From contig CAWEYG010000003.1 in the NCBI GenBank assembly GCA_963813155.1, positions 544,001 to 608,000 on the forward strand: a stretch of DNA of 64,000 bases. The letters run 5' to 3'. This document shows, piece by piece, positions 19,586-57,728 of the stretch. The position numbers and the translations under genes are program-made. The stretch comes from an uncultured Acidobacteriota bacterium (GTDB lineage: Bacteria; Acidobacteriota; Thermoanaerobaculia; UBA5066; DATFVB01). Position 1 is the first letter of the stretch. The number at the start of each line of letters is the position of its first letter. The notes under the pieces are model-generated. The model was not told the DNA's origin. It did not search any database and worked only from the letters and a program-made list of their open reading frames with translations.

Positions 19586-20079
19586 CCGCCTTCGCCGAGG
19601 CTTCGGCGCGACTCCAAAAGCACCACTGCCATCGCCGCGAGGCCCTCGCCCCGCCCCGGGAAACCCATTCCGTTCGTGGAGGTTCCGCGCACCGAGACCC
19701 GGTCGGGAGGGACGTCCAGGAGCGAGGCGATTCCCCGCGCCATCTCTACGCGCCGCGGCGCTATCTTCGGCTCCTCGCCGATCACCGTCGCGTCGACGTT
19801 GCCGATCGACCATCCGGCAGAGCGGACCATTTCCGCGACGGCCGAGAGCATCTCGCCGCTTTCGCGGCCCCGCCCCTTCGGATCGCGGTCGGAGAAATGC
19901 TCGCCGAGGCTTCCCAGGCCGGCCGCCCCGAGCAGAGCGTCGCAGATCGCGTGCAACAGAACGTCGCCGTCGGAGTGTCCCGCGAGCCCGGCGCCCGCTT
20001 CCCAGACGAGCCCGCCCAACGCGAGGGGACGGCCCTTCTCGAAAGGATGGGCGTCGAAACCCAGGCCGACGCGGTTCAT
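19582..20079 (-). CDS. ispF: 2-C-methyl-D-erythritol 2,4-cyclodiphosphate synthase
   Basis: RVGLGFDAH, GHSDGDVLLHAICDALLGA. Confidence 0.95.
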   Translation of the reverse strand: MNRVGLGFDAHPFEKGRPLALGGLVWEAGAGLAGHSDGDVLLHAICDALLGAAGLGSLGEHFSDRDPKGRGRESGEMLSAVAEMVRSAGWSIGNVDATVIGEEPKIAPRRVEMARGIASLLDVPPDRVSVRGTSTNGMGFPGRGEGLAAMAVVLLESRRSLGEGG

Positions 20080-33037: not shown

Positions 33038-33739
33038 TCACAGAATTGCCGAGCTTCGAAAACGGTCGGCGAGCGTTTTTCCCCCGCGCGAAAAGTCGGG
33101 GATCGTCTTGTAGGCCTCGATGCGTCGCTGAAGATCGGCGACATCGCGGGCCGAAACCGCTCTTTCCCTCAGGCTCTCGAGGACGTGAAGGTAGCCCGAA
33201 ACGTCGTAGCCCGCCAGCGAGGCGAGCCGCGCGCCGCACGCGTCGAGAGTGGAGTCGACCGCCGGCTCCGTCTCTCCCGCGGCCTCCCGCAGGCCGCCCG
33301 GCTGCTGCTCGCGGCAGATCTCCCGCGACAGCGTCACCGCCAGATCCGCTTCCGAGGACATCACGAACAGCATTCCGCGCGACAGCACGACGAATCTCCC
33401 CGGCAACGACAGGGAATAAGGCACGTCGGACTGGGTGACCGCGAACCGGTACCGAACGGAGCCGGACACCCCGCCGGCCGCCGTCCGCCCCACGAGATTC
33501 ACGTAGCGCAGAAGGCGCCCGTCGGGCGTCAGGGGGTCGCGGGCGAACAGGCTCGCCGCCATCTCCCGGCCGGCTTTTTCGACGGCGGGGTCGCCGGCGG
33601 AAGGAGTCACGGCCGGGGCGGACGAAGCCGCCGGGGCCGGCGCGATCGCTCGGCGCACGGGCTGCGGGCTCGGAGAGGCGCAGGAACCCGCCGCCGCCAG
33701 AAGGATCGCCGCCGCGAGCAATGAGAGGAGACTCCTCAC
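33038..33739 (-). CDS. M48 peptidase-like lipoprotein lacking HExxH
   Basis: Lipobox-like AAAGSC; [41 protein letters not shown]. Confidence 0.6.
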
Positions 33740-34368
33740 CGAGGACCCGGTTGAAATCGTCCGACCGCCCCCGCCCGCTCGAATTCGGACTGCTCGGCCG
33801 GCGCGATGACGACGGAAAAGAGCCGGTCGACGGCGGCGAAATCTGGAGTCCGGACCGGGCCAGCCTTCCGATTGCCGGGCGACTCCGGCTCGATTTGCTT
33901 CGGCGGCTCGAAGTCCGCCGGGCCGAACGTCGCCGGGGAGGCTTCCGAGCGGCGGAACTGATAGCCGGATCCGTCCGAAAGCACGAAATTCACGGCCGCC
34001 AGGCCGGTGGAATCGTAGCGATATTCGATGCGCGCCTTCCTCTTTCCCACGGGAACGTCCACCATCAGGACCGGCCGGCCGAGGTTGTCGGTCCGGACGT
34101 TTCCCTGCGGGCTGAGCGGCGCCATGAACGCGACGGCGCCGGCCGCCTCCTCGGGCAGATCGCCGTCGGAGTACCACTGCTTTCCGTCGAACACGAGGGT
34201 CTCGCGAAACGCCTCGAGACGCAGCTTGCCGCCGAGCGACTTCACGACCACGCTCTCCCGCGGCTTTCCCGCGAAATCGCGCGACCGAAACACGAGAACC
34301 GTCGGCGAGGCGGGGTAAATACCAAAGGTCGTAAGGAACAGTGCGCCGAGGAGAGAGAGGAACCCCAT
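33736..34368 (-). CDS. Hypothetical exported protein
   Basis: Hydrophobic N-terminus; stop overlaps the next start; -10 box upstream. Confidence 0.6.
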
Positions 34369-34404
34369 TCGCCACAGAATAGCAAAGGCCGTCTGCTAAA
34401 CTCA

Positions 34405-35302
34405 ATGCTCTTGAGAAAAGCTCTCGAATCGACCCTCCTGGCCGGGCTCGCTCCCGCGCGGCGCGGCAAAGTGCGCGACGTCTACGATCTCGGCGACACG
34501 CTGCTCATCGTGTCGACCGACCGCGTCTCGGCCTTCGACGTCGTGCTCTCGCCGGGAATTCCCGACAAGGGGAAAATCCTGAATCAACTTTCGAACTTCT
34601 GGTTCGACGCGTTTCCCGACGTCGAAAATCACCTCATCGAAACGGACGCGGGGGAATTCCCGTCCGCGCTCGCCGCTCACCGCGAGGTGCTCGCGGGCCG
34701 GGCGGTCGTCGTGAAAAAATGCGCGGTCGTCCCCTTCGAGTGCGTCGCGCGCGGCTATCTCGCGGGCTCGGGCTACAAGGACTACGTTCGCACGGGATCG
34801 GTGTGCGGAATCCCGCTTCCCCCGGGCCTTCGGCGAAGCCGATCGCCTCCCGGAGCCGATCTTCACGCCGGCCACGAAAGCGGAAACGGGACACGACGAG
34901 AACGTGTCGTTCGAAGTCCTGGCGAATGCGCTGGGCCGGGAGCGGGCCGCCGAGCTTCGGGACAGGACCCTCTCGCTGTATGCGAGAGTCCGCGCCGCCT
35001 GTGAGGCGAAGGGAATTCTCCTTGCCGATTCGAAGATCGAGTTCGGGGAGATCGACGGGCGGCTCGTCTGGATCGACGAGGCCTTCACGCCGGATTCCTC
35101 GCGGTTCTGGCCGGCGGAGTCGTACCGGCCGGGCAGCTCCCCCGCCTCTCTCGACAAGCAGTTCATCCGGGACTGGCTCGAGGCGAGCGGGTGGAACAAG
35201 ACGCCGCCGGCGCCGACCCTCCCGCGGACGTCGTCGAAGGAACGCGAGAGCAGGTATTTCGCGGCCTTTCGGAAGATTACGGGACGCGAGCCGGAGATCT
35301 GA
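34405..35302 (+). CDS. purC: SAICAR synthetase with a +1 frameshift near 34836 (probable sequence error)
   Basis: [27 protein letters not shown] in one frame; [27 protein letters not shown] in another. Confidence 0.9.
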
Positions 35303-36462: not shown

Positions 36463-38530
36463 TCACATCGCCAGCCCCACGTCGCCTTCGAGCACCGATG
36501 TCTTCAGCCGCGGACGCTCTCCGCCCTTCCAGAGTGCAGCCGTGTGTAAAACCCGATACCGGAGGGGCCCCCCGTCCGGTCTTTCACTGCGCGCGATGGG
36601 CCGCGGGATGCAGACAAACTCGGTGCGCATCTCATCGGCCGACAATTGCACCTTCGCGTAACCGTGTCCTCCCAGATCGACGAACTCGAGGTGCGGAGCC
36701 AGATCCGGGTTGGACAGCGACCGTGCGCGCTTGAGATCGAAGCTCCTGGCATATTCCAGGCTCGAGCGGACGCCGTGCTTGAGCAGCATGTTGTACGTCC
36801 AGTCGGGCTTCGCGCCGTCCGGCCGATCGGCGAGAAACAGCGGGCGCAGCGGATCGGTCTTGGACAAATTGTGCTCGGTGGCTTCCATGGTTCCTGCGCT
36901 CGAGAGCGAGGCGCCGACGAAGCTCAAGCCGACGGGATCGAATTTGCCGGGCGGCAATTGAGAAGTCGCGTAACCGGCCCAGAAGCTGTGGCGGTCTCCC
37001 GAGACGATGGCGAAGCCGGTGATCTTCGCATCCCGGATGAGGTCGTAGATCTCGGCGCGCTCGGTATAGGCCATTGCGTAATCGGGAGGGCTCATGGATG
37101 CATAAGTGTCCTTAGGCCAGGTTTCCTTGGTCAATCCAGGGGGCAGGTTCTGCGGATCGCTTCGCCCATCGAGCGCGCCTTCCGAATTGCCCCAGATCTT
37201 CCACGTGGCGGTCGACTTGCGCAGCTGATCCTTGAACCACGCTTTTTGCGTTGCGCCGAGAATGGTCTGCGGAGGCCTATCCTTCTGCGGGTTTGGGACA
37301 TGCGCATCGCCAAAGCCGACTTCGGCCGGCGGATTGCCGCCGTTGAACGCGCGACCGCCGTCGAGCACCTGCATCAAGGTTTCCGGCGACATGTCGGTGA
37401 ACTCTTCGCCGCCGAGCCTGTTGAGCGAGGGATCGCTAAACGGGTCGGCGCTGCGGTAGCTGTGCTGGTCGGTAATGATCAGATCGAGATGCTTGCCGTA
37501 GCGGAATGTGCGGTAGCCGATCAGGCTGTTGATCGCTGCGAGATTGTTCGGCTCGTCGCCAAGGCCGTTCTCGTCCCACTTCTCGATTGCGACATTCGTC
37601 ACCTGCGGGCGGATCGAAGCTTTCGAACGAGGGTCCGCTGACTTTCTTGCAGCGCGAGGGGAGGTATTCCCACCATGCCTGGTTGGCGGCGACTTTGATG
37701 TTTTGACCCGGTCGAGAGATGCCGCCAGCTTGCTGGATGCTTTGCCAGCCCTGCCACGAGAATTCGTGGTTGTCCCACATGGCGACGAACGGCCAGCGCG
37801 CGCGGGCGTCCTGGAGGTCGGGATCGGCGAGATAGCCTTTGTAAACGGCCCGATAGCCGTCGACCGTCAGCGGGAAATGAAAATGGCCAACCTGGCCCCC
37901 GTCCGGGATGCGCGCGACCTCGTAGATCGTGCGGTCGTAGCGCGTCTTCGTCTCGTCGGGATACTCGACCACCTCGTAGATGAAATCACCCAGGTGCAGA
38001 ACGAAGCCGAGCTGTTGGGCGGCGGGAGCGCGTTCATCTTCGTAAATCATCCGGCGATAGGCGTTGAGCTTGCCCTCGTTGACATCCTGACAGCTCACGA
38101 ATGTGAAGTTCACCGTTCGTGGATCGCCTGGCAGCGGCGCGGTGATCGTGCGGCCGACCCGGCTGCCGTTTCCGTCGGCGTCGGTGAACCGATACCAGTA
38201 AGCGCGCGCCGGCTTGAGTCCGCCAATCAGAACGCGCGCGGTCCAGTCCGCGGCGCTGGAGACCGGCGCCTGCGCGTGCGCAACGACTCGGCGGAAGGCC
38301 TCATCCTCGGCTACCTCGACGGTCAGGAGCTGGCGTGTGTCCTGGGCGAACGGATGCCTCGTCCACAGGATGACGCTGTGCGCATCGGGATCGCCCGAGG
38401 CGACCCCCTGGGGATAGAGATCACGCCGCTCATTCCAGTGGGCACGCGAACCTCGAGCCGGCCCGGCCCATGCGAGCGAAGCACCCATTGCGGCTGCAGA
38501 TTTGAGAAAGGATCGGCGGCTAATCTTCAT
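36463..38530 (-). CDS. phoD: Alkaline phosphatase D family protein (Tat signal) with a +1 frameshift near 37607
   Basis: SRRSFLK twin-Arg motif, GVASGDP, LHLGDFIYE, WDNHE in 37436..38554; VSGDRH in 36463..37602. Confidence 0.85.
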
Positions 38531-38698
38531 CGTCTCACTCCGTCCGGGCGGCAAGTTGCGTCACTCAGGATTCGGACGCAAGCGCCCGCCAAGACAAGTA
38601 CGTACTCTACGCTCGTAAGTTGGGGCGTTGCTGTCAGAATCCTGCGATGATAGATGGTAAGAACGCTACTACCCTAACCCCGTTTCAGACACTCGTGC

Positions 38699-39085: not shown

Positions 39086-39145
39086 GCCTAACGACGCGCT
39101 TCAGCGGTGAGCGAACCGACATCACGCTGTATGCCGGTGTTGCCG
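39086..39145 (-). repeat. attC site 1
   Basis: Plus strand GCCTAAC-GACGCG-CTTCAGCG...CGCTGTATG-CCGGT-GTTGCCG. Confidence 0.7.
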
Positions 39146-39603
39146 CGGGATTTCTCGGTCCCGTGTGAGGCCCGACCAGTACGGACGATCTCGTCGCGCT
39201 GGTGCGCCGATCGCACGAAGCCACCCCGACGCGGGCGGAATCGTTGGGGCGTGGGACGAACTCCGAAGCGCCGGGGTGCGACGGATTCGCGAGGAAGGCC
39301 GAACCCTCACGGGCGAGATCCGAACCGGCTTCGCAACTCGCTGAAGAGGCGACGGATGCCCGCGTCTGGTGCGGGATTTCGAAGTTCTCGTGGGCGAGCC
39401 GACGTTGACATCGGCGCGGGCAGTTCGGCCGAGCACTGCCAGCAGCGTTCTGGCGGCGGCATGCATCAGACGATCGGCGAAGGTGTCGTCCCGCGGCGCT
39501 CCGATTCGAGGCCTCGGCCGCGAACAGCCAATCGGCGGCCGATCCTGCTCCTTTCGGGCAAACCTTCGAGCACTGAGATAGCCTTTTCGAGCTTCGTGGT
39601 CAT
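39146..39603 (-). pseudogene. Decayed type II toxin-antitoxin cassette (antitoxin plus RelE/ParE-like toxin)
   Basis: Frame-shifted fragments MTTKLEKAISVLEGLPE, ADWL, ESERRxDDTFA, then KSRT, IRRLFSEL, FLANPSHPG, SARVG, RAIG, DEIV, YWxGPH. Confidence 0.6.
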
Positions 39604-39639
39604 CGGACCTTGATTTTACCACCAGGCCAACCCTTCCGC

Positions 39640-39703
39640 GGCCAACGCCTTGCGCCTCAGCGGCGGAACGAAGCGACGTCCGCTGCACGCCGGCGTTTTA
39701 TGC
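39640..39703 (-). repeat. attC site 2
   Basis: GGCCAAC...CTCAGCGGCGGAACGAAGCGACGTCCGCTGCACGCCGGC-GTT(TT)ATGC. Confidence 0.7.
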
Positions 39704-40092
39704 GTGCGCGTATCCCCTCCGAAGAAGCACGATCACCGCCTGGCACTTCGCGCCGTGTCGCCGAGGCCGCGGGCTAACGCATGTTCGCGCGCTTTCTCAA
39801 CGCCTGCAATCAGATTTGGAACCGGAAAATCGACGTCTCGCGCCGTCTTCGTGAGGTCATAGGCGCGGTCAATCGCGAAGGTGAGGTGTTGTTCGACAGC
39901 TGCTGAGAGAGAGCCGGGCGGCCGTTAAAGGCTGCAAGCGCGGCCTGGCAAGAACCAGCGGCGAGCGCATTCGCGATAAGCCTGCGCGAGTCCTGCAAGG
40001 CCGCCTCACGGCGCTTGCCAAAAGTCATTCCAGCCGCGAAGCCAACCGCGAGAATGGTTGCCGCGAGCACGAAACGGGTAGGTCCGGTTCAA
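39698..40092 (-). pseudogene. Frameshifted cassette gene with an N-terminal membrane anchor
   Basis: ORF 39810..40070 (LAATILAVGFAAGM) continues in another frame (FAIDRAYDLTKTARDVDFPVPNLIAGVEK) toward attC 2. Confidence 0.45.
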
Positions 40093-40097
40093 CGCAC

Positions 40098-40158
40098 TCC
40101 CCACGATTCGGCGTCAGCGGTGGGGCGCAGCGACATCCGCTGCACGCGCATGTTATGC
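40098..40158 (-). repeat. attC site 3
   Basis: TCCCCAC-GATTCGG-CGTCAGCGG...CCGCTGCACG-CGCAT-GTTATGC. Confidence 0.75.
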
Positions 40159-40520
40159 CCCCGCACTCTCACCATTCTCGATTCCCTTCAGGAGTTCCTG
40201 AGCAACGGCTCGGTCGTCGGTTGTCACCTGAATCTCGACCGGGCCGACGAATAGGGTTATAACTCAAGCCCGATTCGCCCCCACGCGAAGAAATCCTGAA
40301 GACCCTCATATTTGGCGAGGAACTGAATTCCGGCGTCGCGAAACACGGACTCGATGACCGGGAGAAGCGCAGCGTTTCCGGTCGTGTACACCGTGACCAG
40401 GTCGGGATGATGACCTTGCTCCTCCTCGGCCTCCGGCGCCCCCGTCACGAGAGGAACATGACACTCCGCGCACTCGGTAAAGCCCGGCCGGTATTCGTCG
40501 CCGCAATTCGGACAAATCAT
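40153..40520 (-). pseudogene. Zn-ribbon plus DUF2007-like cassette gene, frameshifted near 40255-40270
   Basis: MICPNCGDEYRPGFTECAEC...DAGIQF; shifted C-terminus VGPVEIQVTTDDRAVAQELL ends with TAA inside GCATAAC of attC 3. Confidence 0.65.
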
Positions 40521-40565
40521 CTAGCCACGCGTCTTCAGGGACGCCGCTCCGCCGCCGACGAACCG

Positions 40566-40790
40566 ACAGGCTGAATCCCGCAGCGTAAATGAGGAGCTTC
40601 GCCAGCGCTATGAACCGCGCGCCGCCGGGCGCGGAATTCCAGATCCAGGACCTCGTGTCTCCGAGCGCCAGCCACAGTCCCACCGGCGACGACAACCAGA
40701 CGGTGGAACACTGAATATGATTCCGCTAGGGCGACGGTTAGGAAGATAGACAGACACCGAGGGCGTGCAGACGCGAGGACCAGAACACAT
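40566..40790 (-). pseudogene. Small membrane protein cassette remnant
   Basis: Fragment GLWLALGDTRSWIWNSAPGGARFIALAKLLIYAAGFSL; boundaries approximate. Confidence 0.35.
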
Positions 40791-40795
40791 CACCT

Positions 40796-40857
40796 GCCTA
40801 GCACCGGCTTCAGCGGCAAGGCCGCAGGGCGACGTCCGCTGCAAGCCGATGTTCGGG
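40796..40857 (-). repeat. attC site 4
   Basis: GCCTAGC-ACCGG-CTTCAGCGGC...GTCCGCTGCAAG-CCGAT-GTTCGGG. Confidence 0.7.
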
Positions 40858-41789
40858 CCTGCGGATTCTACAGTATTCCTCGATGGGCCGGCTCTCATGC
40901 CAGCCCTTTGCCTCTCCGAGCGCTCTGACGATGGGTCGAACAGCATACGAACGCTGTCCATGGGCGAGATAGACGCGAACGTCGAACCGAAGCGTTCGCA
41001 GGCCAGCGACAAGATCGTGGTACGTCGTGTCGTCGGTCGCGAAGTCGGCGTAGGCAAGCAGATTGAGGTTCATGGACGCCTCGCCGATACGTTCGAGCCT
41101 TCGATTCCACTGCGCCGGCGATCCACCCAGGGCCTTCGATTTTGCCTCTGCGCGCATCCGCGAGCGGTTTCCAGGGCGGCTTCGATTCCGGGCGCTTGCA
41201 CTACGAGGCCCCTCCGTCGCCCAGGCTCCTGGACCTCGGTAAGCTGGAACTCGAACACCTGGTCCGCTGCCTTCAGCCGGAAATCGACGTCTGTGTCGAG
41301 CGCATCGTTGACCACCGGCAAGGCCGCTCGGCGCCGAAGCCCGTGGGCGAAGAAGCAGGCCGGCAGCTTGCCACGCCATAGCTCGCCGAGCGAGCGACGG
41401 CAGCCGGTGCGCCGATGTTCGACGGCCTCGATTCATTCTCGATCCGGGGCGCCAGCTGCGCCGGCGACGAAGACGGCTCCGACGACCTATGGCCCTGCTA
41501 GCCTGGGCGAAAAGAAACGCAGGTCCAACGGCTGCGAGGGCGATCAGCGCAGAATTCAGACGTGACATATCGAGTACCGGTTGAGCATCGAGGGGAAGAG
41601 GCGACCTACGGCAGCCTTTGAAACCAGCGAGGTCGGGACCGCGAGAATCGATGCGACCCCGTAGGACTGCGCAACCTTTCCGCGAAGTATGCCCAAGCGA
41701 CGGGAGTCACGACTCTCTGTCGGACCACAGCATATGCCCCAACCACGATGAGAAAGATCATGCCGCACCCTGGAACGTGGACGGGCCGC
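40858..41789 (-). pseudogene. One or two decayed cassette genes (a membrane protein remnant and a hypothetical protein)
   Basis: Protein-like fragments in several frames: MIFLIVVGAYAVV, NSALIALAAVGPAFLF, DVDFRLKAADQVFEFQLTEVQEPGRRRG, LNLLAYADF. Confidence 0.4.
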
Positions 41790-41848
41790 CAGCAACGATT
41801 CGGCGTCCGCGTTGGTGCGCACGACATCGCTGCAAGGCGATGTTATGC
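41790..41848 (-). repeat. attC site 5
   Basis: CAGCAAC-GATTCGG-CGTCCGCG...CGCTGCAAG-GCGAT-GTTATGC. Confidence 0.7.
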
Positions 41849-42193
41849 CCGCGCGGTCGATGCATGCGATAGCTCCTTGCGGATGCTTTCCGCCAGACCT
41901 GGGAGGTTCTCAGCCAGGTGTTCGCGGCTGAACATGTTCCCCGCGAAGCCGGGGTGATTTGTGGCGCCGAAAATTTCCCGGCCATCGTGGGTGACCACGA
42001 ATTCCATGTCGGAATATTGAATCTCAAGCGATGAACCGCCGGATCGAAATGAGAGAGCGAAGCCGCCCTTGAACGACTCAGGCGCCACTATCTTGCGACC
42101 CGCCATCTTGAACCCGGAAGGGGCCAAAAACGCAAAGGCGCTGACCGTCTGCTCAGCAAGCTGTTCAACAGCGTTCATGATTCTCGCGGTCAT
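41843..42193 (-). CDS. Cassette-encoded hypothetical protein
   Basis: 116 aa ORF filling the space between attC 5 and 6; TAA inside GCATAAC; alternative start at 42178. Confidence 0.7.
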   Translation of the reverse strand: MTARIMNAVEQLAEQTVSAFAFLAPSGFKMAGRKIVAPESFKGGFALSFRSGGSSLEIQYSDMEFVVTHDGREIFGATNHPGFAGNMFSREHLAENLPGLAESIRKELSHASTARA

Positions 42194-42244
42194 AACGATT
42201 CGGCGTTAGCGGTGGTCGACATCCACTGCCCGCGCTTGTTGGGC
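42190..42244 (-). repeat. attC site 6
   Basis: TCATAAC-GATTCGG-CGTTAGCGGTGG...CCACTGCCCG-CGCTT-GTTGGGC. Confidence 0.7.
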
Positions 42245-42260
42245 GATGGTTGACCAACGA

Positions 42261-42482
42261 TCACCATCGACGACCACCGTACCAAAACACTTTCATCTCC
42301 CTCCGGCAATTTGGGCACTCATGGGTTTCTACTAGCCTCGCGTATGGATCGAACGCGAGGCCGGGCTTGGTTGCCTTTGAGGATTCAGGTGGCGAGTCAA
42401 GGTCCGGAAATGGCAACTGGATATTCTCATTGCACCAAGGACACACCACCGACCGCGCATCTTGCGTCTGCGCGGCCATCAT
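42261..42482 (-). CDS. Cassette-encoded small Zn-finger protein
   Basis: 73 aa; CPWC...CPNC; starts 5 nt after the GTTGGGC core. Confidence 0.65.
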   Translation of the reverse strand: MMAAQTQDARSVVCPWCNENIQLPFPDLDSPPESSKATKPGLAFDPYARLVETHECPNCRREMKVFWYGGRRW

Positions 42483-42487
42483 CTGTC

Positions 42488-42549
42488 GCCCAACGATTCG
42501 GCGTCAGCGGTGGAGCAAAGCGACACCGCGCTGCACGCGCGTGTTGGGT
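42488..42549 (-). repeat. attC site 7 (best conserved)
   Basis: Minus strand ACCCAAC-ACGCG-CGT[G]CAGC...GCTGACG-CCGAATC-GTTGGGC: perfect RYYYAAC and GTTRRRY, L'' extra base at position 4. Confidence 0.88.
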
Positions 42550-42577
42550 CGTAGGGCTCGGTCGGTCCTTTGCTTCG

Positions 42578-43078
42578 TCACTGCCACTTTGAGGATTTCG
42601 GTGCGCTCAACAGTTCGTCAAGTAGAGATGCGACCGCACCCTCGATCTGCCCTTCCAGGTTGTCGGCCGGCGCGATTTCAATGATCGTGTGAGCCCAGGA
42701 AACGTCGCCGTGATCAAACTTCGCGGGGTGATGAAAGCTAGCCGCGACTTCGACAACGTATTGCGGTTTGCATACTGGATCCGGAACCTGCCTCCCCCAG
42801 AACTCGAGGAGTAGGGCGTGCCCAGCCCCCTTCCTGGCAATTATGCCGGCCGATCTGAGGCGTTTCGATACTCGGTCCTCGAGTGCGACCTTGAATCGCG
42901 CGGCCCCGGCCAAGTCGAACAAACCCGCACCAGGTGTTGGCACCATCTCGCCCGACCCACCGATAAAGACCTCAACGCTGACTTCGTCGACGTGGTAGAT
43001 CGGGTTTGATGGCCTTGCCGAGGTCGCCACTGCGGGCGTCGTCGCCAAAAGGCCAAAGAGCAGTGAAAGAGTCGTCAC
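42578..43078 (-). CDS. Cassette-encoded hypothetical secreted protein
   Basis: GTG start, signal-peptide-like TTLSLLFGLLATTPAVA; fills the space between attC 7 and 8. Confidence 0.65.
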   Translation of the reverse strand: MTTLSLLFGLLATTPAVATSARPSNPIYHVDEVSVEVFIGGSGEMVPTPGAGLFDLAGAARFKVALEDRVSKRLRSAGIIARKGAGHALLLEFWGRQVPDPVCKPQYVVEVAASFHHPAKFDHGDVSWAHTIIEIAPADNLEGQIEGAVASLLDELLSAPKSSKWQ

Positions 43079-43090
43079 GATGCAGGCACG

Positions 43091-43220
43091 GCCCAACGAC
43101 CCGGCTTCCCGCCTCCGCGTGAAGCTTCGGCGCGGGTGACCAGCGGCAAGGCCGCAGGCCGAAGCCCCGGCCGAGCCGTAGCCTTGGCGAAGGCTGGTCC
43201 GCTGCAAGCCGATGTTCGGT
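43091..43220 (-). repeat. attC site 8, interrupted by two REP-like insertions
   Basis: GCCCAAC-GACCCGG-CTT[33 nt]CAGCGGCAAGGCCGCAGGCCGA[about 33 nt]GGTCCGCTGCAAG-CCGAT-GTTCGGT; nearly identical to attC 4 once the inserts are removed. Confidence 0.8.
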
Positions 43221-43233
43221 GGCGACGCTTTCC

Positions 43234-43473
43234 TCATCTCGCTCGACCTATGATCAAGCCACGTATTCGAAATGCCAGCAACATTGCGAGCATCGGGCCG
43301 ACGAGTAGCAGCCCGGTCATTCCCCAGATCGCAGTATCAGACCCGTAAGGTCCGCAGATTCCGAGCAAGCCAGAGTTTGTTCCTCGACCTACGGCGATCA
43401 CAGCCCACACGTCTGCAACCATCACCAAAAGGAAGACCACGACCGCGATGCTGAGGGCCGCTGCTCTACGCAT
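43234..43473 (-). CDS. Cassette-encoded small membrane protein (2 TM)
   Basis: 79 aa with two hydrophobic stretches, between attC 8 and 9. Confidence 0.65.
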   Translation of the reverse strand: MRRAAALSIAVVVFLLVMVADVWAVIAVGRGTNSGLLGICGPYGSDTAIWGMTGLLLVGPMLAMLLAFRIRGLIIGRAR

Positions 43474-43489
43474 AGACGCTGCTCACGCC

Positions 43490-43565
43490 CCGGAACGACC
43501 CGGCTTCAGCGGCGGCGTGAGCCGCGGAGCGGCGAATCGACGTCCGCTGGAAGCCGATGTTAGCC
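43490..43565 (-). repeat. attC site 9
   Basis: CCGGAAC-GACCCGG-CTTCAGCGGC...GTCCGCTGGAAG-CCGAT-GTTAGCC. Confidence 0.82.
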
Positions 43566-43835
43566 GGCATGTGCCGACACCTTCCGTCTAACCCATCCAG
43601 CCAATCGGAACATCGCCCACTCGACCCCGATCGCCGCCGCGAGGAGGAGCGTGAGTGGTGCGAGGTATTGGACTACGAAGTTGAGAGCCTGGAAGCCGGA
43701 ACCGCGGGTGTAGAGCTCCGGTGAATCAGCCGCAATCTTGACCAGATGCCGCCACAAGCCGAAACAGAGGAACGCCCAAGCGACCACGGTAACCGTGACG
43801 ACAGACGCTAAGGCGAGCCGCGTCCGACGCATCAT
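43560..43835 (-). CDS. Cassette-encoded small membrane protein (2 TM)
   Basis: MMRRTRLALASVVTVTVVAWAF...; TAA inside GGCTAAC of attC 9; starts 7 nt after the attC 10 core. Confidence 0.7.
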   Translation of the reverse strand: MMRRTRLALASVVTVTVVAWAFLCFGLWRHLVKIAADSPELYTRGSGFQALNFVVQYLAPLTLLLAAAIGVEWAMFRLAGWVRRKVSAHAG

Positions 43836-43842
43836 TTCAGCC

Positions 43843-43910
43843 GCCCAACGACCGGAGTTCAGCGGCGGCGAGCCAGCGGCTCGACATCCCACTGCAACGA
43901 GAAGTCAAGT
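43843..43910 (-). repeat. attC site 10
   Basis: GCCCAAC-GACCGGA-GTTCAGCGG...CCACTGCAAC-GAGAA-GTCAAGT (other core degenerate). Confidence 0.7.
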
Positions 43911-43918
43911 GCGTGGCG

Positions 43919-44572: not shown

Positions 44573-45466
44573 GTGAGCAGTCTCCCCGTCCTCCCCGCGC
44601 GCCCGACGCGGCTCGAGCGCCCCGAGTGGCTGAAGGTCCGGCTCTCGGCGAGCGGAGAGTTCGACGAGGTCAACTCCATGATGCGGCGGCTGAATCTCGT
44701 CACGGTCTGCGAGGAAGCCCGCTGCCCGAACATCCACGAGTGCTGGGCGCGGGAGCGCACCGCCACGTTCATGCTGCTCGGCGACGTCTGCACGCGCCAC
44801 TGCGGCTTCTGCGCCGTCGGCAAGGGAACGCCCGGCTCCGTCGACCCCGACGAGCCGCGCCGCGTCGGCGAGGCGGTCGCGGAGCTCGGCCTGAAGCACG
44901 CGGTCGTGACCTCCGTGAACCGCGACGACCTGCCCGACGGCGGAGCCGAGCAGTTCGCCGCGACGATCCGCGAGATCCGGCGGCAGAGCCCCGGGTGCGC
45001 CGTCGAGGTGCTGATCCCCGATTTCTGCGGCAACTGGGACGCCCTTCAGGTCGTGCTCGACGAGCAGCCGGAAGTCCTGAATCACAACACGGAGACGGTC
45101 CCCCGCCTCTATCGCCGCGTTCGTCCCGATGCCATTTACGAGCGCTCGCTCGAGCTGATCGCGCGGGCGGACGAATTCCGGCGGTCGGGAGCGAAGCTCC
45201 GGACGAAGTCCGGGCTCATGGCGGGCCTTGGCGAGACTTCCGAGGAGATTCTCTCGACGCTCGCGGACCTGCGGTCGCACGGGTGCGACATCGCGACCGT
45301 CGGACAGTACCTGCAGCCTTACGAGAAGCGGCTGCCGGTCGAGAAGTACTACACGCCCGGGGAATTCGCGGAGATCAAGGCCCGCGCGCAATCGCTCGGC
45401 TTTTCTCATGTCGAGTCCGGGCCGCTCGTTCGGTCGTCCTATCATGCCCGACACGCCGCTCTCTGA
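44573..45466 (+). CDS. lipA: Lipoyl synthase
   Basis: [27 protein letters not shown]. Confidence 0.97.
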
Positions 45467-55018: not shown

Positions 55019-55031
55019 GCCGGATCCCGAG

Positions 55032-55736
55032 TTGAAGCCGACCGCGCTCGTTCTTTTCGGCAAGGTCCCGTTGCCGGGGAGAGTCAAGACGCGGCTCGCC
55101 GGCTCGATCGGCCCCGAAAACGCGGCGCTCCTCTCCGAATCGTTCCTCCGCGACGCCTCCCGCGGCTGCGCTTCTCTCGCGGCGGGCCGCTCCCCGGGAG
55201 AGTTCGCGCCCGTCCTCGCCGCGGAACCCCCGCGTCACCCTTTCTGGGCCGGCGCGTTCCCCGCTCCCTGGCGCATCGAGCCGCAGGGAGAAGGCGATCT
55301 CGGGCGGCGTCTCGCGAGAGCGTTCGAACGCGAATTCGAGAGGTACGAGAGGGTCGCCGTTCTCGGCTCCGACCACCCGGCCCTGCCGCTGGCCGAGCTC
55401 GGCCGTTTTCTCGATTCCCCGAGCGCGATCTGGCCGACGCGCGACGGCGGGTACGCCGCCCTGATCCTGGAGAGAAGCCCGGGCGTCGCCGGCCTCTTCG
55501 AGAACGTGGAATGGTCGACACCGTCCGTGCTCGAGCAGACGCTCGAGCGGGCGCGGCGGAATTCGATCGAGCTGGAGATTTTTCCCGAGACCTACGACAT
55601 CGATCGCGAAGCCGACCTCGAAACGCTGGCCCGGGACCTCGAGGAGCGCGATCCGGCAGAGCCCGGATTCCCGCGGGCGACGTGGGAGGCGCTCGGCGCG
55701 CTTCGGCCGCGAAGAGCCGGCGCTCGCGCGACGTGA
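55032..55736 (+). CDS. DUF2064 (TIGR04282-like) glycosyltransferase
   Basis: PGRVKTRLA, QGEGDLGRRL, GSDHP, DGGY, WSTPSVL, YDID. Confidence 0.85.
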   Translation: MKPTALVLFGKVPLPGRVKTRLAGSIGPENAALLSESFLRDASRGCASLAAGRSPGEFAPVLAAEPPRHPFWAGAFPAPWRIEPQGEGDLGRRLARAFEREFERYERVAVLGSDHPALPLAELGRFLDSPSAIWPTRDGGYAALILERSPGVAGLFENVEWSTPSVLEQTLERARRNSIELEIFPETYDIDREADLETLARDLEERDPAEPGFPRATWEALGALRPRRAGARAT

Positions 55737-57269
55737 GAATCCTCACTTCGGCCGAAATGTCCGCCGTCGACCGGGCGGCCCAGAAGAGGGAGAAGATTCC
55801 CTCGCTGCTCCTCATGGAGCGGGCCGCCGAGGGAGTGGCGGATCTGGTTCGGGCCCGCTTTCCCGGCTCGAAACGAATTGCCGTCGTGTGCGGGCCCGGG
55901 AACAACGGAGGGGACGGCCTTGCCGTCGCCCGCCTGCTCGCGGGGTCCCGGGTCTCCCCGAGAATCTTTCTCCTCGGGGCCGCCGGACGCCTTCGGGGCG
56001 ACCCGGCACGGAACCTCTCCCGGGCGGAAGCGGCGGGCCTCGTTCCGGTGGACCTGACGTCGAAGCCGGGCTGGAACGATTTTCGCTCTGCGGTGTCTTC
56101 CATGGACGTGATCGTGGACGCTCTCTTCGGAACCGGGCTCTCCCGCCCCCTGACCGGCGTCGCGCGGAGGACCGTCGAGGCGATCAACGCCTCCGCGCGG
56201 CCCGTCGTCGCGGTCGACGTCCCGTCGGGGCTCTCCGGGGATTCCGGGAATCCTCCCGGGCCGGCGGTCCGGGCCGACTGGACGGCGGCGATCGCGGCCC
56301 TGAAGCGCTGCCACGTGCTCTTCCCCGCGCGGAGCCGCTGCGGCGAAATCGCGATCGTCGACATCGGCATCCCGGACGAGCTGATCGAGACGAAAGGGCA
56401 CCGCTTTGCGGTCGTTTCGGAGGAGGCCATCGCCCCGCTCTTCGCGAAGCGAGCCGAAGACGCGAACAAGGGGAATTTCGGGCACGTCGCCGTCGTCGCG
56501 GGAAGCCGGGGAAAGTCCGGAGCGGCGCTCCTCTGCGCCCTCGGGGCGCTGCGCGCCGGAGCGGGCCTCGTGACGATCGCGTGCCCCGAGTCGGTCGAGC
56601 CGCGGTTCGCCTCCGCCCTGCCCGAGGCGATGACGCTGCCGCTTCCCGAGGAGTCGGGCGCCCTCTCGGCCCGCGCCGAGGCGCCGCTCCTCGCCTTCCT
56701 GGAGAAGTGCGACGCGGCGGCCGTCGGGCCGGGGCTCGGGACGGCGGCCGGGACGGTCCGCCTCCTCTCGTCCGTGGTGACTCGAGCCCGGATTCCGATT
56801 CTGTTCGACGCCGACGCCCTGAACGCCTTTTCGGGACGGCCCGAGGTCTTTCGCCGCCGAAAGGCCGCGACGATCCTGACTCCGCATCCCGGAGAGGCCG
56901 CCCGCCTCCTTTCGAAATCGACCTCGGAGATTCAGCGATCCCGTCCGGAGAGCGCCGCCGAGCTGGCCCGGCGGTCGGGCTCGGTCGCCGTTCTCAAGGG
57001 CGCGGGCTCTCTCACGGCCGACCGCGTCCGGGAGAGTCTGGTGGAACCCCACGGGCACGCCGGCGCTCGCCGCCGGGGGCTCGGGCGACGTCCTGTCCGG
57101 CATCGGGGCTTCGCTGCTCGCCCAGGGCTTCGAAGCCGACGATGCGGCCGTGGCCGCGGTCTTCGTGCACGGCCTCGCGGGCGAGCGCGCGGCGGCCGGC
57201 GCGGACCGGGGAATCCTTGCATCCGAAGTCGCGGCGGCAATTCCCCGCGTCCTGGAATCGTTCGGATAG
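55733..57269 (+). CDS. nnr: Bifunctional NAD(P)H-hydrate epimerase/dehydratase with a +1 frameshift near 57025
   Basis: LMERAA, GPGNNGGDG, DALFGTG, GPGLG, DADAL, TPHPGE; shifted NPTGTPALAAGGSGDVL. Confidence 0.9.
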
Positions 57270-57284
57270 ACTGCCGGAAAATCG

Positions 57285-57728
57285 ATGGAATTCCCGCTTG
57301 AAGTCGAATCGACCCGCGAGGATCAGACCCGGAGCATCGGAAGGCTCCTGGCGTCCGAGCTGCGCGAAAACGACGTCGTGGCCCTCTCGGGCGAGCTCGG
57401 AGCGGGCAAAACGGTCTTCGTTCGAGGGCTCGCCGAGGGGCTCGGGGCCGATCCCGTGGATGTCGCCTCGCCGACGTTCGCCCTGTTGCACGAATACGAG
57501 TGCCGCGCCGGAACTCCCTCGCTCGTCCACCTCGACCTCTACCGCCTTCCGGATCGCGAGGAAGAGCTTCGCGAGATCGGCCTGCCCGAGGTCGTTTCGG
57601 GAAAGATCACGGCAGTGGAGTGGCCGAATTCCTCGAGCGAAGCGATCCTCCGCGTCCGATACCGCGTTCGACTCGAATCGGGGCCGGGCGACTCGAGGCG
57701 GATCCGCCTCGAACGGGGACCGCAATAA
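57285..57728 (+). CDS. tsaE: t6A biosynthesis ATPase TsaE
   Basis: GELGAGKT, SPTFALLHEY, HLDLYRL, VEWP. Confidence 0.94.
   Translation: MEFPLEVESTREDQTRSIGRLLASELRENDVVALSGELGAGKTVFVRGLAEGLGADPVDVASPTFALLHEYECRAGTPSLVHLDLYRLPDREEELREIGLPEVVSGKITAVEWPNSSSEAILRVRYRVRLESGPGDSRRIRLERGPQ

Follow-up and report, generated by a model that had tools for sequence, protein, structure and literature searches.

Two units of a dispersed repeat have probably inserted, in opposite orientation, into a single attC site of an integrase-less array, and the first of them is predicted to be disruptive. The site (a8; 43091..43220, + strand) is the eighth of ten in the window, the term used here for the whole 64-kb stretch of DNA analysed. 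The two units, ins1 and ins2, could have arrived in two separate events or as the convergent pair that is typical of the family. Of the two, ins2 would leave the attC fold intact and ins1, lying between extrahelical bases, would compete with the canonical pairing; the two cassettes separated by a8 would then behave as one block.

An attC array and its interrupted site

Ten imperfect palindromes, the attC-like sites a1-a10, occupy 39086..43912 (+ strand) and belong to repeat families D5, D8, D10, and D14. They are spaced 300-1000 nt apart, with short cassette ORFs between them on the - strand. Site length is about 56-77 nt, with a8 (130 nt) the exception. The array is flanked by phoD (36466-38560, -) and lipA (44573-45466, +), and its neighbourhood, which includes rpoBC and genes for ribosomal proteins, belongs to the core chromosome. 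The consensus fold of the nine sister sites contains 16 pairs, three with compensatory changes, in the following order: the AAC/GTT box pair; an unpaired spacer; an L helix of 4-5 bp; an extra base; a stem of 5-6 bp; and a second extra base. Both extra bases lie on the 3' arm of the + strand, and none on the other arm. Neighbouring boxes are complementary across cassettes (for example, GTTGGGC of a6 with GCCCAAC of a7), and the cassette ORF at 41843-42193 (-) spans exactly from box to box, its ATG lying within the a6 box and its TAA within the a5 box. (Another cassette protein, encoded at 42581-43078 on the - strand, matches only unnamed clusters in the Atlas.)

A covariance model, R1, was built from nine array sites, with a8 left out. 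Run on the 64-kb window, it recovers the nine training sites together with a8 (20.1 bits, E 0.002, full length), and it gives no further match on the + strand at E<0.01, nor below E 0.1. No Phage_integrase domain is present in the 261 six-frame stretches of at least 110 aa from the window, and the smaller array-region ORFs have none either. The array is an attC cluster without an integrase, at least within the 64-kb window. Its lipA-side end, site a10 (43844-43912), has a good RYYYAAC end, and its opposite end has no GTT box; a10 may be a decayed array edge. Neither attI nor an integrase follows beyond it.

The available text of Nivina et al. 2016 (PMC5027507) identifies the recombinogenic bottom strand by its 5'-terminal RYYYAAC together with extra bases located on the L'' side. 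Here RYYYAAC lies at the 5' end and the extra bases lie on the 3' arm, so the + strand is the bottom (recombinogenic) strand, and the orientation of the cassette ORFs agrees. Across the window (1-64000), GC skew of the + strand is negative and highly expressed genes lie on the - strand; this would place the attC bottom strands (+) on the leading-strand template. Sedentary chromosomal integrons are reported to have this same orientation, with the bottom strand on the leading-strand template.

The elements of an attC site can be read along a8: R' GCCCAAC (43091-43097); L' GGCTT (43103-43107); 5' stem CAGCGG (43141-43146); the native terminal loop (43147-43165); 3' stem CCGCTG (43199-43204); extra base C (43205); L'' AAGCC (43206-43210); and R'' GTTCGGT (43214-43220). 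The inverse core boxes are present, with GTTCGGT departing once from GTTRRRY. The site resembles its sisters in these boxes, in the extrahelical bases on one arm (matched end to end by R1), and in its position within the array; its arm is interrupted by ins1.

Comparison with a near-twin, site a4 (40796..40859, + strand), which serves as the "empty" reference, defines the additional DNA. Common to both sites are GGCTT, then 18 identical bases (CAGCGG plus CAAGGCCGCAGG), then 23 bases at the 3' end. Between GGCTT and CAGCGG, a8 carries 33 additional bases (43108-43140). In the loop, 39 bases of a8 (43159-43197) stand against 6 in a4, which makes a8 longer by a further 33. The two inserts of about 33 nt that a sequence-only reading had described within 43091-43220, relative to the attC at 40796, are correct in both position and sequence when compared with a4 and a9. 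The inserts are 32-33 nt long and contain no ORF. The first difference represents an insertion in a8 rather than a loss in a4, because a9 (43490..43565, + strand) has an uninterrupted GGCTT-CAGCGG arm and six other sites likewise have an uninterrupted 5' arm.

Repeat unit ins1 (43109..43140, + strand) consists of CC, a 24-nt core, and a 6-nt tail. Its place is on the 5' arm, where it separates the L' box from the stem and faces the extra base C at 43205. The sequence-only reading had put the split at this point (CTT|CAGC), taking it to fall within the L' box; the arm is indeed split, and folding predicts disruption. Repeat unit ins2 (43166..43196, - strand) consists of CA, a 23-nt core, and a 6-nt tail when read on the - strand. 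It occupies the terminal loop, immediately 5' of the 3' stem arm, and its GTAG lies at 43178-43181 (+). The two units are in opposite orientation, 25 nt apart. Two simpler derivations were considered and rejected. Copying of one insert across the palindrome is ruled out, since ins1 and ins2 show 12 differences over about 32 positions and sit 8 nt away from where mirror symmetry would place them. A single REPIN-like insertion with its own spacer is also ruled out, since the 18 nt between the units are native a4 stem and loop. The a4/a8 comparison reveals neither terminal inverted repeats nor a target-site duplication, with at most one ambiguous C at the junction.

Folding with DNA parameters addressed the consequences, with the probabilities of the canonical L and stem helices drawn from the fold ensemble. 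Both helices are strongly predicted in a4 (L 0.98, stem 0.95) and a9 (L 0.99, stem 0.90). For a8 as found the values are 0.085 and 0.019, and the canonical fold lies 3.1 kcal/mol above the minimum, in predictions that ignore the integrase, which could capture a minority fold. Computational removal of ins1 gives 0.93 and 0.92; removal of ins2 gives 0.67 and 0.03; and removal of both gives 0.98 and 0.92. Folding of the bottom strand, which had been put forward as a check, thus separates a8 clearly from its form without ins1. The first insert brings the sequence GAAGCT, which is able to pair with the L' box and competes with canonical pairing. In these models, ins1 is predicted to abolish the canonical recombinogenic fold, and ins2, in the terminal loop, is harmless to it. 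Given its place between two extrahelical bases and the pairing of its GAAGCT with the L' box, ins1 is expected to reduce recombination or to prevent it. On this modelling a8 is probably a poor or dead recombination substrate, and we infer that its recombination would be impaired in fact. The potential locking of cassette excision put forward in the sequence-only reading is a folding prediction.

A sharply bounded repeat family

Judged from the window alone, the likeness of the two inserts is at chance level. Among 20000 random pairs of window segments, 9.85% align as well as the inverted inserts do. The best other window match of each insert falls at the same place (19586-19611), with scores that random window segments also reach, 25 times in 120 for 33-mers and 14 times in 120 for 42-mers. 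Exact and 3-mismatch motif searches of the window returned the inserts themselves only.

Public genomes give a different result. A degenerate pattern, made to fit three window sites (ins1, ins2, and 19586-19616), was scanned on these genomes and identified at least 123 loci with at least 125 distinct copies; the matches listed come from genomes other than the source genome. The variant spectrum is skewed: the commonest two exact cores account for 19 and 16 copies among the matches listed. Three features emerge at positions that the pattern left free. CC stands just upstream of the core in 106 of the 125 copies listed, where about 9% is expected from composition (binomial p about 3e-90); C stands at +2 in 113 of 125; and the free pattern position K is G in 120 of 125. 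Information content is at background beyond -2 and +6 (124 external copies among the matches listed), which delimits a unit of 31-32 nt with sharp ends. Its consensus reads CC, then GCCTYCGC, 1-2 nt, RARGCTWCGGCKCG, then rCArGC. The size and edges of this unit match both additional segments of a8.

A profile of the external copies finds three sites only in the window: 19586-19616 (E 5.8e-9); ins2 (E 2.5e-8); and ins1 (E 2.5e-6), the next match having E 0.11. The profile score is circular for the 23 core positions, as the external copies were chosen with a window-derived pattern; the flanks and the unit length are independent. The core of ins2 is exactly that of the copy at locus L072 and lies one base from the commonest external variant among the matches listed. 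The core at 19586-19616 is identical to 6 external copies among them. The first insert is diverged: its nearest external unit among the matches listed is 5 edits away and the median 9, compared with an external-to-external median of 6, and its tail fits the family poorly. By sequence comparison, the inserts are units of a real dispersed repeat family; the external conservation of unit and flanks makes their membership real despite the chance-level result from the window. The claim that they are diverged inverted copies of one motif is upheld by the external family and gains nothing from the window by itself. The motif does recur, both at the third window site and in public genomes, as that claim had entailed.

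Among the matches listed, with taxon labels assigned by hand, 45 loci belong to Verrucomicrobiota, 33 to Acidobacteriota, 22 to Alphaproteobacteria (8 of them Bradyrhizobium), and 5 to Desulfobacterota, with a few others, and many genomes of soil bacteria carry the repeat. Roughly eight matches in other groups, without the CC prefix, may be chance. The unit sequence is near-identical across the four named groups. At least 10 assemblies have 2-3 separate loci, and the density in the window is 3 copies in 64 kb. Copies occur as head-to-tail tandems of about 32 nt (L046, 1966-2055; L034, 1930-2024) and as inverted pairs (L013, L025, L063/L064, L022, L008, L090, and L117); among inverted pairs at the listed loci, the convergent orientation, which a8 also shows, is the most frequent. 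Applied to the 311,873 nt of the listed loci, the profile yields 22 further copies, 18 of them less than 200 nt from another copy. Copies adjoin tRNA and 5S rRNA genes and sit between genes. They are depleted in long frames: a frame of at least 150 aa spans 56% of 75 copies, versus 85% of 1600 random positions.

Some copies are nonetheless read through as coding sequence. The third window unit (19586..19616), given as + and read on the - strand, contributes roughly the final nine codons of ispF (-) and its stop codon, which shares an ATGA overlap with the start codon of the gene that follows, for a SpoU-type rRNA methylase; the two frames match Pfam YgbB and SpoU. The repeat unit has here become the C-terminal tail of a housekeeping protein. 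At L110:301-331, a unit lies in frame within a DUF1501 gene, between the signal region and the mature domain.

Other observations concern the surroundings of the unit. At nine loci (L005, L037, L043, L044, L049, L060, L061, L083, and L106), from Bradyrhizobium and a related alphaproteobacterial MAG, the unit lies within a composite palindrome of about 100 nt that has outer arms ATCGCCCGGCT... / ...ACCGGGCGA and a second, diverged inverted unit. The 5' arm of the a4-type attC (GGCTTCAGCGGCAAGG; 40806-40823) resembles the 3' half of the unit (GGCTTCGGCGCGGCAAG/GCAGG). This resemblance was set aside as chance: the unit profile has no match there, and R1 has none on units except a marginal one at L110. 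Rfam has no match to the unit (12 loci and the array). A literature search with the unit core string found no relevant paper and one unrelated primer match. Blastn of a8 against a plasmid collection returned 10 short matches (17-30% coverage) in coding regions, none of them a unit or an attC.

Two explanations compete with insertion into a8. In one, the long form is ancestral, and a4 has lost both units by precise deletion of hairpin DNA. Such a deletion would yield the identical a4/a8 alignment, yet the uninterrupted arm is shared by a9, which has a different loop, and by six other sites, and both segments match the length and boundaries of a unit in unrelated genomes; an ancestral long form is very improbable. 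In the other, which is hardly credible, the segments reflect chance similarity or an assembly artefact: either the normal length variation of attC loops, or misjoined sequence. The chance-level window statistics agree with it, as does the natural range of attC sites: according to the available text of PMC5027507, they measure 57-141 bp, which includes the 130 nt of a8, and chromosomal ones, as in sedentary integrons, often have long branched loops; an extra hairpin in the terminal loop, such as ins2, is the usual form of variation in them. In contrast, ins1 lies outside the loop, in the paired arm between two extrahelical bases, and the external conservation of unit and flanks, above all the CC prefix, is not what chance would give.

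Genes split by frameshifts in the window likewise point to assembly errors. One of two tuf copies, purC, phoD, and an NAD(P)HX dehydratase domain are each split between two frames (regions 358-1902, 33439-35299, 36466-38560, and 55019-57298), and because several conserved genes are split in this way, assembly quality is imperfect. The two tuf copies are 100% identical in the compared blocks, with block spacing 16355 versus 16354; the difference of one base indicates single-base indels, arising from faulty assembly or from recent frameshifting. The 33-nt insertions, with their match to a known unit, are of another kind than these single-base errors elsewhere in the window.

Mode of spread and target

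The preferred explanation, insertion of two repeat units, leaves two matters to weigh: how such units spread, and whether attC sites attract them. By sequence and arrangement, the family resembles REPs: its units are short and dispersed, and many form tandems or inverted pairs. The unit falls within 20-40 nt with sharp boundaries, and inverted pairs and clusters are both present. The available text of Di Nocera 2013 (PMC3733652) describes GTAG/CGTC-tagged REPs in families common to distant taxa, with dimers 20-100 bp apart, and (section 7) REPs nested in other palindromes. Several likenesses to REP, REPIN, and BIME elements as described there can be listed: a GC-rich unit of small size (20-40 nt), dispersed and apparently for the most part not in long frames; occurrence singly, in head-to-tail tandem, or as inverted pairs separated by 2-130 nt; one family in distant taxa, including Bradyrhizobium, Verrucomicrobia, and Desulfobacterales-type genomes; and nesting in palindromes. 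The unit might belong to a numbered REP family of that 2013 catalogue, with which it was compared by description.

The differences from REP and REPIN elements are also considerable. Predicted unit hairpins are weak, with alternatives of 4-6 bp only. Variable unit positions show no covariation (for example, C at position 5 occurs mostly with A at its would-be partner in the copies listed), so that no palindrome is maintained by complementary changes. The tetranucleotide is GTAG in 71 and GAAG in 54 of the 125 copies listed, the search pattern having allowed both, and it is internal to the conserved unit rather than terminal, with 12 conserved bases 5' of it. The GTAG of ins2 runs into a predicted 6-bp hairpin, in keeping with the tetranucleotide at the foot of a hairpin that the sequence-only reading had placed in both inserts; the predicted hairpin of ins1 is a different one. 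REP identity is accordingly upheld for pairing and sharp bounds, and fails for the hairpin and the covariation.

Proteins that might move the unit were sought in the window and at the listed loci. The Pfam domain Y1_Tnp is absent from the 261 six-frame stretches of at least 110 aa in the window. It is absent, too, from 73 frames with an HUH-like motif, out of 2217 frames of at least 70 aa at the listed loci; the prefilter that selected these 73 required H-hydrophobic-H-hydrophobic and would have passed over any RAYT whose motif deviates from it. The E. coli RayT protein, used as a tblastn query on the listed loci, gave nothing (best E 3.5). The flanks sampled comprise 2 kb at 80 loci and 300 nt at 43 loci, which does not exclude a RAYT elsewhere in these genomes. 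RAYT genes number one or a few per genome. The RAYT gene flanked by the motif that had been anticipated did not appear, either in the window or in the sampled flanks.

It is conceivable, and we infer it only tentatively, that a RAYT-like HUH enzyme supplied in trans disperses the units, in the manner of REP-type elements, by way of single-stranded DNA. A mode of spread independent of RAYT is likewise a possible account that we would put forward with reserve: the agent might be another recombinase, copying between dispersed copies, or selection of the unit as a functional RNA or protein-binding element. Such a mode would explain why sequence is near-identical across phyla, with the same core in Verrucomicrobiota, Acidobacteriota, Alphaproteobacteria, and Desulfobacterota among the matches listed, and it suits a unit that is conserved without covariation, sampled flanks that hold no RAYT, and copies that are read as coding (the ispF tail; the DUF1501 linker at L110). 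Against it, no Rfam family matches the unit, the flanks sampled are small relative to a gene present once or a few times per genome, and GTAG-type REP families are themselves common to distant taxa, as the available text of PMC3733652 describes.

A bolder interpretation, that a REP/RAYT system preferentially inserts into folded attC sites, makes the double insertion a hot spot and a sign of regular crosstalk that retunes cassette excision. Two of the three window units do lie within one 130-nt attC, and each occupies an interruption of the helix: ins1 faces the first extra base, and ins2 adjoins the second. There is also a weak excess of units enclosed in stems of at least 7 bp (5 of 124 units versus 12 of 1240 controls; p 0.015 before correction for the four thresholds tried), seen at thresholds of at least 7 bp only. 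The other loci speak against such targeting. R1 found no convincing attC site at the 123 other loci listed. Its best match (L046:2216-2278) lies 160 nt from the units in a coding-looking stretch, and its match at L110:306-364 is marginal (13.5 bits) and falls within the DUF1501 ORF. This absence is a weak negative for targeting, because R1 was fitted to the sites of this array and genomes contain little attC DNA. Flank complementarity is the same as in controls: the median duplex energy is -7.25 kcal/mol for 124 external copies and -7.0 kcal/mol for 1066 controls (p 0.23). The broader notion that the family generally sits in hairpins was dropped, given these flank energies and a stem excess confined to thresholds of 7 bp and above. 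Moreover, two copies in one site need no attC-specific targeting, because the family often forms pairs (18 of the 22 extra copies), and it commonly does so in ordinary intergenic DNA.

Preferential insertion into attC is therefore unlikely. Less likely again is its most general form: that the repeat moves on single-stranded DNA and prefers the discontinuities of extruded hairpins, with attC sites as natural hot spots and the unit as a heritable lock. The proposal that a REP/RAYT system acts on attC finds neither a RAYT, in the window or the sampled loci, nor attC sites at the other loci; enrichment inside attC, on the same weak negative, is not apparent; and crosstalk between REP/RAYT systems and integrons is unproven. 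Insertion of two family units into a8, with ins1 disruptive, is the explanation we prefer, in the face of a diverged ins1, a chance-level likeness in the window, sampled sequence that holds no RAYT, and a unit that shows no covariation.

Known systems and significance

Mobile DNA is familiar within attC sites. Group IIC-attC introns sit there, and carry their own reverse transcriptase. MITEs resemble the a8 inserts as small, non-coding, repeated DNA, and the a8 inserts differ from them in having neither terminal inverted repeats nor a target-site duplication in the a4/a8 comparison. IS1111-attC elements (ISKpn4, ISPst6) also sit within attC, and the same IS family has relatives that target REPs, according to the available text of PMC11187229. 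The likeness of these elements to the a8 inserts is in their location. They are of kilobase size, encode their own transposase, and have a fixed insertion point, whereas the a8 inserts are 32-33 nt, have no ORF, and occupy two points; the inserts fall far short of the 1 kb or more, with a DEDD transposase or reverse transcriptase, that characterizes IS1111-attC elements and group IIC introns. Sampled copies of the unit also differ from REP/RAYT systems in having no RAYT nearby.

No account of a REP lying within an attC came up in the literature search; the sequence-only reading likewise knew of no description of such crosstalk. The sole REP paper found to mention attC uses attC as an analogy (PMC8266576). 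As a single instance with no sign of targeting, a8 is a curiosity, not evidence of a new system.

The consequences would be wider if such insertions recur. If REP-type repeats enter attC sites more than occasionally, they would be an unlisted cause of cassette immobilisation beside IS1111-attC elements, and also a source of long branched attC sites in chromosomal integrons. If insertion at hairpin discontinuities is real, a unit placed between the extrahelical bases would fuse neighbouring cassettes and help to turn mobile arrays into fixed chromosomal genes, providing one route for the decay or domestication of integrase-less attC clusters. The more general by-product is the repeat itself: a sharply bounded unit of 31-32 nt, near-identical across the four groups listed.
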